Positions 16,807 to 37,781 of a stretch of DNA of 64,000 nt are shown here, one piece after another. The notes below the pieces were generated by a model. It ran no database searches, had not been told where the DNA came from, and saw only the letters and a list, made by a program, of their open reading frames with translations. Made by a program: the position numbers and the translations under genes. The stretch comes from a bacterium. GTDB taxonomy: Bacteria; UBA8248. Location of the stretch: contig CBDBZU010000004.1 of NCBI GenBank assembly GCA_965213625.1, positions 3,232,001 to 3,296,000 of the forward strand. Direction: 5' to 3'. How positions within the stretch are numbered: position 1 is the first letter of the stretch; each line of letters begins with the position of its first letter.

Positions 16807-18810
16807 TCAGGAGCTGAGGAGGCCTTTCGTCTGCGCGACGATGTTCTCCGCCGTGAGGCCGAAATGCGCGTAGATTTCCTTGTAAGGCGCGCTCGCACCA
16901 AAACGATCGATTCCAATCACCGCGCCATCGTCTCCCACCCACTCGCGCCAACCCATGGTGGCACCCGCTTCAATCGCCACCCTCGCCTTCACGCCAGCCG
17001 GGAGAACGGAATCCTGATAAGATTGAGTTTGTTCCCGAAATAGTTCCCAACTCGGCATGCTCACAACCCGGGCATCGATTCCGTCAGCCGCCAATGCGCT
17101 TTGCGCCTCCATCGCCAACTGCACTTCCGATCCTGTAGCAATCAATACGGCTTGGGGGGAGCCTCCTTTTTCAGATGAGACAACATAAGCCCCGCGCTCC
17201 AGCATTTCCGCTCCAGCCTCCTTCGAACGCTCCAGGACGGGCAGGCCCTGTCGAGTCAACACCAGCATGGTCGGTCCCTCGAGACGCTCTATCGCCACTC
17301 TCCAGGCCACGGCAGTCTCGTTCGCATCGCATGGACGTATGATTGTGAGGCCCGGCATGGCGCGAAGCGAGGCAAGGTGTTCAATCGGCTGGTGGGTCGG
17401 GCCATCCTCGCCCAAGCCGATGGAGTCATGCGTCATCACATAGATGACGGGCAATTCCATCAGAGCCGCAAGGCGTATGGCCGGACGTGCGTAATCTGTG
17501 AACGTGAAAAATGTAGCCGCGTAAGGACGAACACCCCCGTGCAAAGCCATGCCCGAACAAGCGGCTCCCATGGCATGTTCCCTGATGCCCCAGTTGATGT
17601 TACGGTTGGCATAGTCTTTCTTTGCGAAATTTCCGGACTTTTTGATCATCGAGTTATTTGAAGCCGCCAAGTCCGCGCTTCCGCCAATCAGCCAGGGGAT
17701 AACGGTGGCGATTTCATTCAATACTTTGCCAGATGCCGCCCGCGTAGCGAGTGCCCCATCATCGGCTTCAAAGATGGGCAGGCAGCTCTCCCAATCGGCA
17801 GGAGGTTCGCCTTTAAGCGCCGCCTGTAACTGCTCGGCCAGCTCTGGATTCTCTGATTTATATTCCGCAAAGCGGTCATTCCAATTTTCTTCTAGCGCAG
17901 TACCGCGTGAAACTCCCTCTCGCATATGAGCGGAAACTACATCCGGCACCAGAAACGTTTCACTCTCTGGCCAGCCATAATTCCTTTTCGTGGCCTCAAC
18001 TTCTTCATTCCCCAAGGGAGCGCCATGCGCGCGCGCTGTATCCTGATATAGAGGCGAGCCAAAACCGATGTGGGAGCGAATGACTATCAAAGATGGGCGC
18101 TCCGTCTCCGCCTTGGCCTGCTTGAGCGCACCGGAAATCTGGGGTAAATCCTCCGCGCTATCGCCCAGATTTTGAACATGCCAGTTGTATCCTTCAAAGC
18201 GCTTCTCCACGTCATCGGAATAACTCAACGACGTTTCGCCGTCGATGGTGATGCGGTTATCGTCATAGACACAGATCAGTTTACCGAGACCCAGATGCCC
18301 CGCGAGTGATGCCGCTTCATGAGAGGCGCCTTCCATGATATCGCCATCGCTCATGAACACATATGTATAATGATCGACTATCGAGTAGCCTGGCCGATTG
18401 AAAGTGGTCGCCAAATGCGCCTCCGCCATCGCCATACCCACTGCATTCATGAAACCTTGTCCGAGCGGGCCTGTGGTGGTTTCGACGCCTGGGGTAAGTC
18501 CAAATTCGGGATGTCCTGGCGTTTTGCTGCCCCACTGACGAAAGCGGACAATTTCATCGAGCGGAAGTTCATATCCGCTAAGGTGGAGAACAGCATATAG
18601 AAGCATGGAGGCATGACCACAAGAAAGCACGAAACGGTCCCGGTCAAACCAGTTTGGATTTTGGGGATTATATCGCAGATGATTCATCCACAGTTCATAA
18701 GCGAGAGGCGCCAGCGCCATGGGCGTACCCGGGTGGCCACTGTTCGCCTCTTGCACTGCATCCATCGAGAGAGTACGTATGGTGTGAATCGATTGTTCGG
18801 CAATGCTCAT
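16807..18810 (-). CDS. tkt: Transketolase
   Basis: [48 protein letters not shown]; start ATG 18810 (alternative 18849). Confidence 0.97.
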
Positions 18811-18960
18811 TTCGGAGAACAGTTCTTTTTCTTTAAAAAACTTCGTCATACCAAATACGCTCGCTTCCTTGTGAAAAAATTAAAAAAACCGGATCACGTA
18901 CGCAAACCTTCCATCTCATCCCGATATGTCAAGATATTCATTCAACATTCGCAGACTGGG

Positions 18961-20145
18961 TTATACTTTTGCTCTTCGCCGATCCAGAGTTTCGAGCCAG
19001 CCTTCCAAAGTTTCCACAACTTTACTGTCAGCGAGAGAGAGAATCGGTGTCGATCGGTCTTTATCTTCTTCCACCTTATTATGCAACAGCGACGCGGTTG
19101 ATTCTTCCATTTTTTGCTCAAGCGTCGATATTTTTCCCAATATCCATGGAGTGTTTACGCCCAGAAATTGCGCCTTTTGACACAAATCCAATGCCTGGGA
19201 GTCATTTTCCTCTTGGATATAAAGTTCTATCACCTTTTGCAGAATAGGGTCGACGACTTCTTCGCTAACAACATCTTCTTCTGAGCTGACACTGTACCCC
19301 GGTTCCTCCACATCGACTTCCGATGTTATACCCGTTGGGCTTAAGTCCTCGCCTGAATCTTTAGTTTCGGCTGTAGACGTTTCGGCACCACCTTCATCTG
19401 GTTCCATTTCTTCAGGCGTGACAGCACCTGACCTTACCTCATCGGGTACGTCTGTCTCGCCTTTAACTTCACCTGCTATCAAATCGAGATTTTCTTCCGT
19501 CCCGGGGTATCCAGTGGGTGTATCAACATCCGTGTGCTGCGATAGTTGCTCTCGAATAGCAGCTAATCTCTCATTCCATTCAACTTTAGCGGGATCAGAC
19601 TCTAAAAGACGTTCGTAGACATCCTGCGCCTTATCCAGAAATCCCTGAGCTAGATATAGCTCAGCAAGAGCCGGCGTGATAACTTCGCCCAATTCTTCTT
19701 CAGGACCAACAACTGGAGCGCTATCAGCATCGGCATCTGCCACAACAATTTTGGGGGTTACTTCATCAGCCGCGATCATATTGGCTACACTTAGCGTGAC
19801 TTTCGCAGCCTCCTCGTTACCCGCTTTCCGATAACATTCGGCCAAGAGACGCTGACCTGAAATATTCCAGGGAACAATTTCCACCGCTTTTGCAATAAAT
19901 CGAGCTGCCTGCTCGTGCTCATCTTTCGAGATGAGTATTTCTCCCAGCAAAACTCCTGCGGCTGCATAGTTGGGATAAGTTGCGAGTCCACTTTTCAGGA
20001 GATTTTCGGCTTGGTCTGCTTCGCCTTTCTCCCATAAATGGCATGCCAAAGGAAAAAAAGCAGCCGAGGAGGGGTATTGTTGTAAGCGTCCCTCCAAAGC
20101 TTTAACTCGGGCTTCTGGATTACTCAAGCGACGTATCATCGACAT
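18961..20145 (-). CDS. Tetratricopeptide-repeat protein with acidic linker
   Basis: TPR-like helices, ITPALAELYLAQG repeat, E/D-rich central region. Confidence 0.7.
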   Translation of the reverse strand: MSMIRRLSNPEARVKALEGRLQQYPSSAAFFPLACHLWEKGEADQAENLLKSGLATYPNYAAAGVLLGEILISKDEHEQAARFIAKAVEIVPWNISGQRLLAECYRKAGNEEAAKVTLSVANMIAADEVTPKIVVADADADSAPVVGPEEELGEVITPALAELYLAQGFLDKAQDVYERLLESDPAKVEWNERLAAIREQLSQHTDVDTPTGYPGTEENLDLIAGEVKGETDVPDEVRSGAVTPEEMEPDEGGAETSTAETKDSGEDLSPTGITSEVDVEEPGYSVSSEEDVVSEEVVDPILQKVIELYIQEENDSQALDLCQKAQFLGVNTPWILGKISTLEQKMEESTASLLHNKVEEDKDRSTPILSLADSKVVETLEGWLETLDRRRAKV

Positions 20146-20281
20146 CTCGGTGGGGTAATAAGGGCGTATACTCCTATATGAATAAATGCTAGCAAAGGGT
20201 GACTTGCTCTGACAAGAGCCAGTATCTCCAGCTTTCGCCCAAGCTCTCCTTCAAGAATAAGTTTTGGATTCAGATATATCG

Positions 20282-36499: not shown

Positions 36500-36733
36500 T
36501 CGAACTTCTCCTTCCACTAGAAGCCAGTTTGTGATTTTGAGACTTTGGCCCACTGCTGTACAGGCAATTTTTACACTTCAAGCAATAATACCAGAACTTA
36601 TTGTATTCTGCCTCAGCGCAAGAGTGGATAAACCGCTCCAAGCCTTTGGGGCAAGGATGAATTTGTCATATGGTATTGCTTGCAGATACAATTCTCCATC
36701 ACTTGTACACTCTCATCATTTTGGAGACAGAAC

Positions 36734-37078
36734 ATGCAATCTTGCGTCTTTTGTAAAATCGTAGCAGGCGAGATTCCCTGCAAAAAAGTGTATGAAGATG
36801 ACGCATTGTTTGCATTTGAAGACGCCAACCCGGCGGCCCCCACACATATTCTGATCATCCCGAAAAAACACATGGAGACGCTCCATGAGATACAGGATGC
36901 GGACAAGGAACTGATTGGCTCGATATTCGTTGCGGCGAATGAAATCGCTCGCAAACAGGGAATCGCGCAAGAGGGTTTTCGTATCGTCGCGAATTGCGGA
37001 GATAACGGCGGCCAAACAGTCTTTCACATCCACTTTCACCTCTTGGGCGGACGCCAGATGGAATGGCCGCCTGGCTAG
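36734..37078 (+). CDS. Histidine triad (HIT) nucleotide-binding protein
   Basis: CVFCKIVAGEIP, GQTVFHIHFHLLGGR..WPPG. Confidence 0.95.
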   Translation: MQSCVFCKIVAGEIPCKKVYEDDALFAFEDANPAAPTHILIIPKKHMETLHEIQDADKELIGSIFVAANEIARKQGIAQEGFRIVANCGDNGGQTVFHIHFHLLGGRQMEWPPG

Positions 37079-37157
37079 CATATGCATCGTACATAAAATT
37101 GTTTGCGTCAATTGAACTGCCAGAGAACTCACCTGAGAATTGCTGCCCTCTTAGAAC

Positions 37158-37781
37158 CTACATCAATCGGAATCGCTGCTCCATGGCCCGGCTCCATTTG
37201 CTCGCTTGATCATGATCGAACAAAATATCCGGATCCGCAGGCGCCGTATACCAGTCTCCGCGCCTCATCTCGCTCTCCAGTTGCCCGGCCCCCCAACCGG
37301 CGTAGCCGACCACGATTACGATTTGCTTGGGCCGCTTGCCTCGAGCTATGGCCCGAAGCATCTCATCCACCGGACTTACCGCTACATTCTGTCCCAAGTC
37401 ATGTATCACATTGAGTTGATGTTCATTTGTATGGAGCACGAAGCCCGTATCGGGAGACACGGGACCACCGTAGTAGATATTCACCTGGCTCATCTCTCGA
37501 GGCGCTTTTATGCCAAAACTTCGGAAAAGCGCGGAGAGCGGTATTCTCTGCACCACACGATTTACTATCAGCCCGAATGCACCCTTTTCGCTGTGTTCCA
37601 CCAATAGAATGACACTCTGGCGAAACCGGCCGTCCGGCATGCCCGGTCGCGCGACCAGCAACACGCCCTCGTGATATCCAAGCAGTGGAAGGTATGGCCC
37701 TTCCGGGTTCTTATCCTGCTCCTGGGCAGAGGCGGTAACGGCGAAAAACAACACCATCGCAGCGAGAAGGATTCGTTTCAT
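37158..37781 (-). CDS. YqgE/AlgH family protein with N-terminal signal peptide
   Basis: LLVARP..FRQSVILL..GAFGLIVN, YGGPV, GYAGWGAGQLESE; MKRILLAAMVLFFAVTASA leader. Confidence 0.88.
   Translation of the reverse strand: MKRILLAAMVLFFAVTASAQEQDKNPEGPYLPLLGYHEGVLLVARPGMPDGRFRQSVILLVEHSEKGAFGLIVNRVVQRIPLSALFRSFGIKAPREMSQVNIYYGGPVSPDTGFVLHTNEHQLNVIHDLGQNVAVSPVDEMLRAIARGKRPKQIVIVVGYAGWGAGQLESEMRRGDWYTAPADPDILFDHDQASKWSRAMEQRFRLM

Follow-up and report, generated by a model that had tools for sequence, protein, structure and literature searches.

Vertebrate chromosomes are organised into isochores, long compositional domains for which biased conversion linked to recombination is the usual explanation. 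GC content can also decay across a whole lineage once its mutation or repair has changed, as in reduced genomes and low-GC Prochlorococcus. Along individual bacterial chromosomes, A+T enrichment and a structuring of third-position GC (GC3) around the replication terminus were reportedly described by Daubin and Perriere in 2003 and, in E. coli, by Touchon et al. in 2009. In addition, the GC of bacterial core genes varies with recombination, a pattern attributed to GC-biased gene conversion (gBGC; Lassalle et al. 2015, PMC4450053; PMC11879095). PMC11879095 reports a positive correlation between r/m and GC in 82% of 146 species, recombination coldspots that encode mainly housekeeping genes and recombination landscapes that are kept between related species, and PMC4450053 describes GC3 differences between recombinant and non-recombinant core genes.

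Here we describe an ~18-kb housekeeping stretch of a bacterial chromosome whose GC content lies far below that of its surroundings, chiefly at silent sites. Within the window, the whole 64-kb stretch of DNA that was analysed, the core of this domain (18901..37100) has a GC content of 0.481 versus 0.63 in the flanks. By segment, GC was 0.634 at 1-9000 and 0.545 at 16801-18900 on the left side, and 0.597 at 37101-39000 and 0.624 at 39801-64000 on the right; 1-kb values ran at 0.609-0.654 across 1-9 kb, 0.437-0.510 across 18-37 kb and 0.571-0.682 across 40-56 kb. Across the 4.13-Mb chromosome, the full set of 18.2-kb windows averages 0.591 (SD 0.031), which puts the block at a z of -3.55; windows of this length with GC as low make up 0.45% of the genome's total, at four places. 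GC3 drops by 0.3-0.4 (0.39-0.55 per gene in the block versus 0.64-0.84 in well-called flank genes and ~0.8 outside), GC1 and GC2 drop by ~0.06 each, and intergenic GC is 0.413 in the block (n=11) versus 0.555 outside (n=16). Taken with intermediate values in the bordering tkt and mnmA genes, this implies that the dip is regional rather than gene-wise. Nor is it tied to expression, since rpoB, rpoC, tuf, fusA and rpsL/G have GC3 values of 0.71-0.84. Four-fold degenerate sites in the block are near 25% for each base (A 0.227, T 0.263, C 0.258, G 0.252), and its proteins are shifted as well, GARP residues falling from 0.378 to 0.284 and FYMINK residues rising from 0.165 to 0.220. The low-GC domain reported in a preliminary description of this DNA is therefore real in overall GC, in GC3 and in spacers. 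Its statement that strand bias is the same inside and outside holds for the sign, GC skew being negative throughout, but not for the size, which is greater in the block (-0.109) than on the left (-0.077) or right (-0.029).

The core genes named in that description (tkt, eno, nrdR, rpiB, rsfS, nadD, proB, obgE, rplU, rpmA, AlgH/YqgE, mnmA and HIT) were all matched in family searches. On the minus strand unless noted, the left shoulder consists of tkt (transketolase; 16807..18849; TIGR00232, E 1.6e-271), followed by a TPR-repeat protein with weak TPR family matches and orthologues in 10/10 relatives (18961..20145; GC3 0.41), an SDR-family oxidoreductase assigned by family search (20805..21569, plus strand; GC3 0.48), an FG-GAP repeat protein (21575..22930, plus; GC3 0.48; PF13517, PF01839), eno (enolase; 23031..24335; GC3 0.52; TIGR01060, E 7.4e-202) and a probable Family III CoA-transferase, CaiB/Frc-like, whose matches all fall below curated cut-offs (24392..25726, plus; GC3 0.49). 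Next come nrdR (25831..26295; TIGR00244, above cut-off), rpiB (26320..26847; TIGR01120, above cut-off), another TPR-repeat protein found by family search (26984..28261), a probable DksA/YteA-type zinc-finger regulator (28277..28654; matches below curated cut-offs), rsfS (ribosome silencing factor; 28671..28985; TIGR00090), nadD (29050..29757; NF000840, above cut-off), proB (29738..30883; TIGR01027) and obgE (30895..31983; NF008955 / TIGR02729), whose ORF start is an upper bound because its alignment to the family starts at residue 17. The block continues with rpmA (L27; 31964..32221; PF01016, E 7.5e-36), rplU (L21; 32234..32551; TIGR00061), a PEGA-domain protein (32707..33099; PF08308), a probable HIBADH-type NAD(P)-dependent dehydrogenase (33230..34153; matches below curated cut-offs), a DUF484 protein with the block's lowest GC3, 0.39 (34335..35060, plus; PF04340), and an MmgE/PrpD-family protein (35108..36553; PF03972, PF19305). 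A HIT-family protein (36680..37078, plus; PF01230, E 1.9e-27) starts the right shoulder, followed by AlgH/YqgE (DUF179; 37158..37898; PF02622) and mnmA (37783..38943; PF03054), the first high-GC gene on this side (GC3 0.79). As first noted by eye, integrase and phage genes are absent, with no such family match among the 23 block ORFs scanned, and neither a tRNA gene nor an Rfam match was found within the 64-kb window.

The edges had been described as gradual and lying inside genes. Intermediate values are indeed found in tkt and mnmA, but the borders are shoulders 2-3 kb wide, not smooth ramps. On the left, tkt is intermediate over its full length (GC3 0.58; 0.42-0.72 in 60-codon windows), GC3 being 0.82 upstream of it and 0.41-0.48 downstream; the rise on the right runs from 0.49-0.60 at ~36 kb to 0.69-0.87 along mnmA. 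Abundant 14-mer repeats lie on both sides, at 9247, 11086, 16500, 39533, 46779, 52045 and 53619, with none between 16517 and 39532, in keeping with the reported lack of REP/MITE-type repeats in the domain. The repeats at 16500-16516 and 39533-39546 thus bound an uninterrupted, REP-like-repeat-free segment (16500..39546) that is collinear with relatives by blastn. REP-like elements flank the block in genomes G000, G022, G008 and G011, and the density of REP-like clusters is 0.054 per 5 kb at GC <0.52 versus 0.66-0.74 at GC >0.60, low-GC blocks being depleted ~13-fold. Strain-specific genes are present in the flanks and absent from the block; this and the repeat depletion we count as no sign of DNA flux.

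The same dip was sought, and found, in related genomes. The tkt-to-mnmA segment is collinear in 10/10 relatives examined, with GC3 of 0.38-0.56 (six relatives), 0.50-0.68 (two) and 0.77-0.94 (the two basal ones). The obgE locus (the gene was matched in 41/41 genomes) has low GC in 19/22 congeners and high GC in two basal species, its GC3 being graded along successive branches from 0.85-0.89 through 0.57-0.58 to 0.44-0.53; pnp and secA are partly low in GC already in basal species. Dip position and borders are kept in ~19 species, across a 4-fold divergence of 0.33-0.38. Since the two basal species branched off, 4-fold GC has moved from ~0.9 to ~0.5 in the block and from ~0.93 to ~0.82 in the flanks. 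Protein trees of inner and outer genes, a comparison proposed at the outset, are congruent and of the same relative depth: the rooted tree has the genus monophyletic, and the path ratio d(G000,G001)/d(G001,G007), from branch lengths summed by hand, is 1.85 for inner and 1.87 for outer genes. Of 331 orthologue pairs with G001, 74 have a GC3 shift >0.2 and sit mostly in five main runs; amino-acid identity to G001 is 76.8% in these strongly shifted genes versus 77.1% in the rest. Single short-read contigs of three runs, which may be this assembly's source, cover 17900-37899 with 0 differences, and the spanning contigs (~22.5 kb) reach just ~1.1-1.4 kb past 17900 and 37899. These data show that the block is a vertically inherited part of the core chromosome. 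It shares with a horizontally acquired island its atypical composition and the repeats and variable genes in its flanks, but differs in its core genes, universal synteny, congruent phylogeny and lack of mobility genes or a tRNA anchor, so that the initial view of it as no normal island is supported. As in lineage-wide decay, the GC fall is vertical and directional and extends to amino-acid usage; here, however, it is regional, in a genome with GC3 of ~0.8 over most of its length.

Substitutions at 4-fold sites, counted on recent and older branches, show block and flanks to be under two stable silent-site regimes, with an inferred equilibrium GC (GC*) of ~0.46 versus ~0.70, in line with the regime of its own first suspected for the domain and showing it to be long-lasting. 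The 65 low-GC3 genes gave GC* values of 0.47 (recent) and 0.45 (older), the 42 high-GC3 genes 0.73 and 0.68. Inside blocks, S>W changes outnumber W>S (216 vs 116, and 1376 vs 665); as S>W exceeds W>S in both compartments, neither is strictly at equilibrium, and the absence of any drift back up in the block speaks against a single replacement event. Relative to G<>C changes, high-GC genes have 3.1-3.7 times less S>W and no increase in W>S (0.83-0.86 times), and the transition:transversion make-up of S>W changes is alike inside and outside. Genealogies also differ between the compartments: recent branch depth divided by older is 0.216 for low-GC versus 0.523 for high-GC genes, 2.4-fold apart (z = 8.8 for S>W, 5.4 for W>S and 4.8 for S<>S).

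A search for similar dips elsewhere revealed that the genome holds ~ten low-GC blocks of 10-50 kb. The four deepest, at 2.83-3.27 Mb, adjoin the skew maximum (2,883,604), from which the present block lies ~365-385 kb away, and the largest low-GC runs adjoin the skew minimum (860,385) and maximum. Genes with GC3 <0.55 form a fraction of 0.17 at 0-200 kb and 0.14 at 200-400 kb from the terminus versus 0.04-0.07 mid-replichore, making them 3-4 times commoner near the terminus, with a second enrichment near the origin. Terminus-associated A+T enrichment is thus resembled in that the four deepest blocks fall within ~400 kb of the skew maximum; unlike it, these are discrete blocks with 2-3-kb edges that alternate with high-GC genes, show no gradient with terminus distance and recur near the origin. 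Domain limits also vary by lineage, G001 having a low-GC stretch of its own across genes that are high in GC in G000.

We tentatively favour, at somewhat below even odds, the reading that a GC-raising force linked to recombination is weak in the block and that silent sites there relax to mutational equilibrium. Mutation in this lineage would drive silent sites to roughly 45-50% GC, and most of the chromosome would be kept well above that level by a fixation bias that favours GC and goes with homologous recombination, whether through GC-biased gene conversion or because recombination makes selection more efficient. The bias would be weak in the blocks because these compact, repeat-free and rearrangement-free housekeeping segments, mostly near the terminus, may exchange less DNA, and silent sites, spacers and, less so, proteins would therefore relax. 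The 2-3-kb shoulders could then mark the inward reach of conversion tracts started outside, and codon selection may keep GC3 high in highly expressed genes such as rpoB at any recombination rate.

Block and flank genealogies differ: G022 and G008 are 0.975-0.995 identical in 18/20 block windows and 0.81-0.975 in the flanks, G000 and G020 show the reverse, and G020 is nearest to G000 in 20/22 right-flank windows versus just 10/18 block windows. In a separate 170-kb region, GC and identity correlate negatively in the close pair (Spearman -0.43) and positively in distant pairs (+0.46, +0.54). The block is a mosaic at kb scale, and in the close pair holds a 2-kb patch of 91-93% identity, indicating that it is not recombination-free. 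No donor was found for flank windows, a genome other than the sister being nearest in 0/18 windows for G022 and 0/7 for G002. Across 16 taxa with short internal branches, low-GC loci agreed no better among themselves than they did with high-GC ones (normalised RF 0.54-0.77 low-low, 0.31-0.85 low-high; distance-matrix correlations 0.67-0.83 and 0.60-0.86). For rpoB and a second high-GC gene, 4-fold distance is 0.60 x low-GC distance with zero intercept and exceeds it in just 2/120 species pairs, so the excess flank divergence of close pairs is not general. Although rpoB follows the low-GC loci in genealogy (r 0.85-0.86; RF 0.31 with pnp), its 4-fold GC is 0.77-0.93 outside the two basal species (0.83-0.90 except in G009, G010 and G019), so that codon selection is needed as an extra assumption. 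A pure fixation bias further predicts shifts in both S>W and W>S, and we count the difference in S>W only against our favoured reading. Lower recombination in low-GC blocks is what we infer, with several tests for recombination-poor blocks negative.

That only S>W differs between compartments speaks instead for a regional mutation bias, an unlikely explanation that nonetheless ranks closest, in which blocks suffer more G:C>A:T mutation per site under the same fixation everywhere; the cause might be replication or repair conditions linked to the terminus, more single-stranded exposure or poorer repair-enzyme access. The deepest blocks beside the skew maximum, the raised low-GC3 gene fraction near the terminus and the lowered spacers would fit. 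However, discrete blocks between high-GC genes, the missing terminus gradient, 4-fold sites without strong strand asymmetry and the similar transition:transversion make-up of S>W do not, and a fixed rate difference cannot give the contrast in branch depth ratios. Moreover, mutY was found in 5/5 genomes and family-1 ung in 0/5, dipped and undipped species alike. More improbable still is an AT-rich domain selected for nucleoid folding, supercoiling, terminus or origin organisation, or binding by an AT-preferring nucleoid protein. Conserved borders, REP-like elements beside the block and the largest runs at both skew extremes would suit such a domain, but 4-fold sites near 25% for each base are those expected without any force, limits differ between G001 and G000, and a search confined to H-NS-family genes, also the check made on the protein coating or topological isolation first suggested as physical causes, found them in 0/5 genomes. 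The old homologous replacement first considered, in which the clade ancestor took 15-50-kb core segments from a lower-GC close relative, is very improbable: discrete blocks with fairly sharp borders and the discordant genealogies of G000 and G020 would agree with it, and a within-genus donor would leave trees unchanged, but inner genes show no extra depth, shifted genes are as similar in amino-acid sequence as unshifted ones, the depth of the dip is graded from branch to branch, with pnp and secA partly low already in basal species, S>W exceeds W>S without amelioration towards flank composition, and no uniformly low-GC member was seen among 22 congeners at six loci. Finally, despite the atypical composition and a CheckM-type contamination of 5.16%, an assembly chimera, contamination or an ordinary island is, in our reading, refuted by the recurrence of dip and gene order at the same syntenic place in relatives' independent assemblies and by congruent trees, with the difference-free contigs (possibly source data) and the lack of mobility and tRNA genes pointing the same way.

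The dip resembles the recombination-linked core-gene variation of PMC4450053 and PMC11879095 in being strongest at third codon positions while reaching non-coding DNA, in its housekeeping low-GC segments, in a landscape conserved among relatives and in its S>W excess. It differs from that pattern in size (0.3-0.4 in GC3, ~0.15 in overall GC), in forming contiguous 10-50-kb blocks with 2-3-kb edges and not a statistical trend over scattered genes, and in a link to recombination that is indirect, several tests not supporting it. Like vertebrate isochores, the blocks affect silent and non-coding sites and are inherited across species; being a hundred to a thousand times shorter, on a haploid bacterial chromosome with no meiotic recombination, they offer an analogy only. 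The block is inherited, occurs in most of the genus's species and has several counterparts in the genome, and so has the look of a bacterial 'isochore' on a small scale, not of foreign DNA or a misassembly.

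Chromosome contig C4 of the genome under study (G000), of which the window covers 3232001-3296000, is 4,134,368 bp long and has a GC content of 0.591. Followed in 1-kb steps, GC in the window ran at 0.61-0.65 at 1-9 kb and 0.52-0.59 at 9-18 kb, dropped to 0.437-0.510 at 18-37 kb and then returned to 0.57-0.68, so that the block at 18901-37100 has a GC of 0.481, as against 0.634 in the left flank and 0.624 in the right. The low-GC domain of the preliminary description is thus confirmed by GC, by GC3 (0.39-0.55 in the block vs about 0.64-0.84 outside) and by comparison with all windows of equal length on the chromosome, among which it lies at z = -3.55, with 0.45% of windows equally low. 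GC1 and GC2 drop by only ~0.06, and spacer GC is 0.413 in the block (n=11) vs 0.555 outside (n=16); the compositional shift is therefore greatest at synonymous sites, with non-coding DNA also affected. At the protein level, comparison with G001, one of two basal species in the genus that have no dip, showed a fall in GARP residues (0.378 to 0.284) and a rise in FYMINK residues (0.165 to 0.220) among block proteins; in flank proteins GARP residues went from 0.401 to 0.339.

The genes expected in the block (tkt, eno, nrdR, rpiB, rsfS, nadD, proB, obgE, rpmA, rplU, HIT, AlgH/YqgE and mnmA) were all present, the remainder being TPR, SDR, FG-GAP, CoA-transferase, DksA-like, PEGA, dehydrogenase, DUF484 and PrpD-like genes. 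The reported lack of mobility genes was upheld as well, since none of the 23 block ORFs scanned matched an integrase or phage family; the 64-kb window contains no tRNA gene and no Rfam family. The gradual edges said to lie within genes took the form of shoulders 2-3 kb wide, with intermediate GC3 across tkt and from HIT into mnmA: tkt is intermediate over its whole length (GC3 0.58), and on the right GC3 rises through HIT and AlgH into the beginning of mnmA. Strand bias had been described as equal inside and outside; GC skew indeed keeps the same sign throughout, but it is stronger in the block.

REP-like repeats, likewise as claimed, are missing between 16517 and 39532, and those in the window lie at 9247-9305, 11086, 16500, 39533, 46779, 52045-52134 and 53619. 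They belong to at least two GC-rich families, one with the core CCTCAAGGGGGGAG, the 14-mers of which reach up to about 100 copies on both strands together; the core motifs have ~100 copies each in the genome. The genome has 420 repeat clusters, whose frequency in 5-kb bins is ~13-fold lower at GC below 0.52 than at GC above 0.60. REP-like motifs occur in the windows of crown species, in three of which (G022, G008 and G011) they lie just beyond both block ends, and the windows of G001, G007 (the second basal species) and G009 contain none of these motifs. By the left edge, strain-specific insertions at 9675-10913 and 12600-16800 encode an RTX calcium-binding-repeat protein, a luciferase-like monooxygenase and a cupin protein, for which none of ten relatives has an orthologue at the locus. 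Two small low-GC spots, at 56001-57000 (ORF 56408-56815; GC 0.455) and 39236-39736 (GC 0.524), contain ORFs that match no Pfam family and lack counterparts in relatives; unlike the main block, they look like ordinary small acquired islets.

The same dip was then sought in related genomes. ObgE was matched in all 41 genomes searched, with 76-92% identity within the genus, and ten congeners were compared over 64 kb around obgE. The tkt-to-mnmA segment is collinear in all ten, and eight have the dip at the same place, six at GC 0.45-0.52 and two in a shallower form (G019 and G009; 0.49-0.56); it is absent in G001 and G007, where GC is 0.64-0.73. Across 22 congeners, the obgE locus (the gene with about 1.5 kb per side) has a GC of at most 0.53 in 19, so the dip is shared, and the pnp and secA loci behave in the same way. 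The obgE locus has a GC of 0.64-0.69 in G001, G007 and G015, the last being an 8-Mb assembly in 70 contigs with a broken obgE.

An assembly chimera, one of the origins initially considered, found no support: in three Logan runs of one study, which are not independent since they are possibly the source data of the assembly, a single contig per run spans 17900-37899 with no differences, and ten relatives have the feature in their own assemblies. We exclude an artefact as the origin of the dip. In a further run from another study (X1, labelled viral metagenome), short low-depth contigs were 95-99% identical to the block, which may point to a close relative in that sample. Plain horizontal transfer did not hold up either. 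Concatenated protein trees of inner (17) and outer (11) genes have the same deep topology, and a tree of ObgE, ProB and L21 rooted with other genera recovers a monophyletic genus with G001 and G007 basal, so that no foreign lineage is indicated; along this tree, obgE GC3 goes from 0.85-0.89 to 0.57-0.58 and then to 0.44-0.64. A horizontally acquired island was rejected: the block has the atypical composition of one, but it lacks mobility genes and tRNA genes, its presence is not patchy and no tree points to a foreign source. The block is a compositional domain made up of core genes and inherited vertically; it belongs to a family of similar blocks.

Composition is unusually heterogeneous over the genome, which has ten runs of at least eight genes with a median GC3 below 0.55. 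GC of 5-kb bins has an SD of 0.040 and a range of 0.451-0.707, and GC3 an SD of 0.115 over 3548 heuristic ORF calls, which were made by a greedy longest-ORF rule and include some antisense shadows among the high-GC calls; removal of these altered one of 43 genes and no conclusion. The skew minimum lies at 860,385 and the maximum at 2,883,604, with dnaA at 984,976. The four deepest windows all fall within 2.83-3.27 Mb and carry core genes (IF-2, PNPase, MutS, ProS, FtsH, SecA and FtsK), other low-GC runs carrying transporters, selA and a TrlF-like ATPase; the block itself is about 365-385 kb from the skew maximum. The share of genes with GC3 below 0.55 is 0.17 at 0-200 kb from the terminus, 0.14 at 200-400 kb and mostly 0.04-0.07 farther off, apart from 0.10 at 1600-1800 kb and 0.15 close to the origin. 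A+T enrichment around the terminus was reportedly described by Daubin and Perriere in 2003 and by Touchon et al. in 2009. In G000 no gradual fall of GC3 towards the terminus was seen, but discrete blocks with genes of GC3 0.7-0.88 between them.

Several further features of the chromosome were recorded. A distance of 125 kb separates the cumulative GC-skew minimum from dnaA. Low-GC runs abut both skew extremes: one of 42 kb (865-907 kb) begins at the minimum, and one of 53 kb (2828-2881 kb) stops at the maximum. The most leading-strand-skewed frequent 8-mer is GGGCAGGG (233 leading vs 92 lagging), which is similar to the E. coli KOPS motif; no Chi-like or uptake-like oriented 8-mer is strongly skewed, the highest skew being the 0.43 of GGGCAGGG. 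The only matches to an 8.3-kb side contig were IS21-type transposase regions from unrelated plasmids.

Comparison with G001 over about 0.5 Mb yielded 331 orthologue pairs, collinear but for one inversion, in which the GC3 difference (G001 minus G000) peaks mainly at 0-0.10, with a shoulder at 0.25-0.40. Most of the 74 genes with a difference above 0.2 lie in five main runs, one of which is the block (17 of 17 genes), and there are six further runs of one or two genes; the amino-acid identity of the 74 between the two species is 76.8%, vs 77.1% in the rest. G001 has a low-GC stretch of its own (contig C1, 1309001-1344000; GC 0.51-0.54), near a local skew extreme at ~1.359 Mb, which includes genes that are high-GC in G000, and its pnp and secA regions are also partly lowered. 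The process is therefore genus-wide and progressive, with an extent specific to each lineage.

At 4-fold sites, GC in the block is 0.51-0.57 in all crown species and 0.91-0.93 in G001 and G007, the corresponding flank values being 0.77-0.85 and 0.93-0.95; in the block each base occupies ~25% of these sites. Substitutions were polarised in a quartet made up of a recent pair (G022 and G008) and an older pair (G000 and G020), using 65 low-GC3 and 42 high-GC3 genes from the window and a 174-kb terminus region. These parsimony counts on filtered sites, which carry the usual bias, superseded window-only counts with too few events. The inferred equilibrium GC at 4-fold sites (GC*) is 0.47 and 0.45 for low-GC genes and 0.73 and 0.68 for high-GC genes. 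On the recent branches, changes from A/T to G/C (W>S) per W site number 0.180 vs 0.059 in the two compartments; once scaled to G<>C changes, the compartments differ only in the reverse direction, S>W. A mutation bias that varies by region could set such regimes, although we consider it unlikely to be the cause. Loss of repair genes was rejected, because mutY (present in all five genomes searched: G000, G020, G022, G001 and G007) and family-1 ung (TIGR00628; found in none of the five) are alike in dipped and undipped species. Selection on expression or codon usage was also rejected as the cause of the dip: GC3 of rpoB, rpoC, fusA, tuf and rpsL/G is 0.71-0.84, so expression is not the key, the ribosomal-protein operon is GC3-rich, and spacers are affected. 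Among AT-preferring nucleoid silencers, H-NS (PF00816) was the family searched for, and none of the five genomes had it; that the blocks are structural domains maintained by selection strikes us as improbable. Finally, an old replacement is most implausible, because S>W exceeds W>S in the blocks (216 vs 116, and 1376 vs 665, in the quartet), so that no upward amelioration is under way, which speaks against a one-off import.

We also looked at whether the block recombines less. The ratio of recent to older depth is 0.216 in low-GC genes vs 0.523 in high-GC genes (z = 8.8, 5.4, 4.8 and 0.2 for four change classes), a disparity for which a fixed rate difference cannot account. G022 and G008 share 97.5-99.5% identity in 18 of the 20 windows of the block, as against 81-97.5% in the flanks; for G000 and G020 the pattern is the opposite. 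In a separate 170 kb, GC correlates with identity at -0.43 in the close pair and at +0.46 and +0.54 in distant pairs. G020 is clearly nearest to G000 in 20 of the 22 windows of the right flank; in the block it is nearest in only 10 of 18 windows, by small margins. Between G022 and G008, a ~2-kb patch at 25001-27000 (CoA-transferase, nrdR and rpiB) is 91-93% identical in a surrounding block of 98-99.5%, and is probably a recombination import inside the block.

Other comparisons were negative. No donor of imported DNA was detected in the flanks of either close pair, the sister genome being nearest in every flank window, and trees of the low-GC loci obgE, pnp and secA are no more alike than those of low-high locus pairs. 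Taken together, rpoB and another high-GC gene have a 4-fold distance equal to 0.60 times the low-GC-gene value with an intercept of zero, and thus show no excess short-term divergence; the rpoB genealogy is that of the low-GC loci, yet its 4-fold GC is 0.77-0.93 outside the two basal species. We conclude that block and flank compartments differ in their history of exchange, and the more economical reading would make the block the colder, less recombining one. Separately, a 712-aa high-GC core-like gene of G000 (C4, 3035535-3037670) encodes a protein 99% identical in G020, has no full-length match in G022, G008 or G006 and only a partial one in G004 and G017, and has a 55%-identical paralogue at 3142808-3145411.

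Whether biased gene conversion or selection keeps bacterial GC above its mutational equilibrium has long been disputed. Our preferred account, held tentatively, is that a recombination-linked force favouring GC may be weak in the blocks. According to PMC11879095, recombination varies along bacterial genomes, its correlation with GC is positive in 82% of species, its coldspots are mostly housekeeping genes, landscapes are conserved among related species, and the authors prefer selection to biased conversion; PMC4450053 describes recombinant core genes with higher GC3 and proposes GC-biased gene conversion. The block has in common with such recombination-linked variation its synonymous and non-coding effect and its conserved landscape, and it can be classed as a strong case, arranged in blocks, of the regional GC variation known in bacteria. 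In full-text literature searched on general terms, nothing like these kb-scale low-GC blocks of core genes was found to be described.

Going further, these blocks might be true bacterial 'isochores', although we think this unlikely: discrete, mostly terminus-near domains, whose substitution regime would follow from a heritable physical trait of the domain, for instance its nucleoid or topological state, its accessibility to repair or its exclusion from DNA exchange. As a genus radiates, such domains could appear, deepen and move their borders, shifting the amino-acid composition of core proteins along with them. In practical terms, composition-based tools will mis-flag such blocks as islands or contamination, and because block proteins are shifted in composition, studies of codon usage and phylogeny that draw on core genes are biased by the blocks. 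With undipped basal species at hand for comparison and many genomes closed, the genus provides a natural contrast within one chromosome, in which orthologous core genes have a silent-site GC of ~0.5 or ~0.85 depending on block and lineage.
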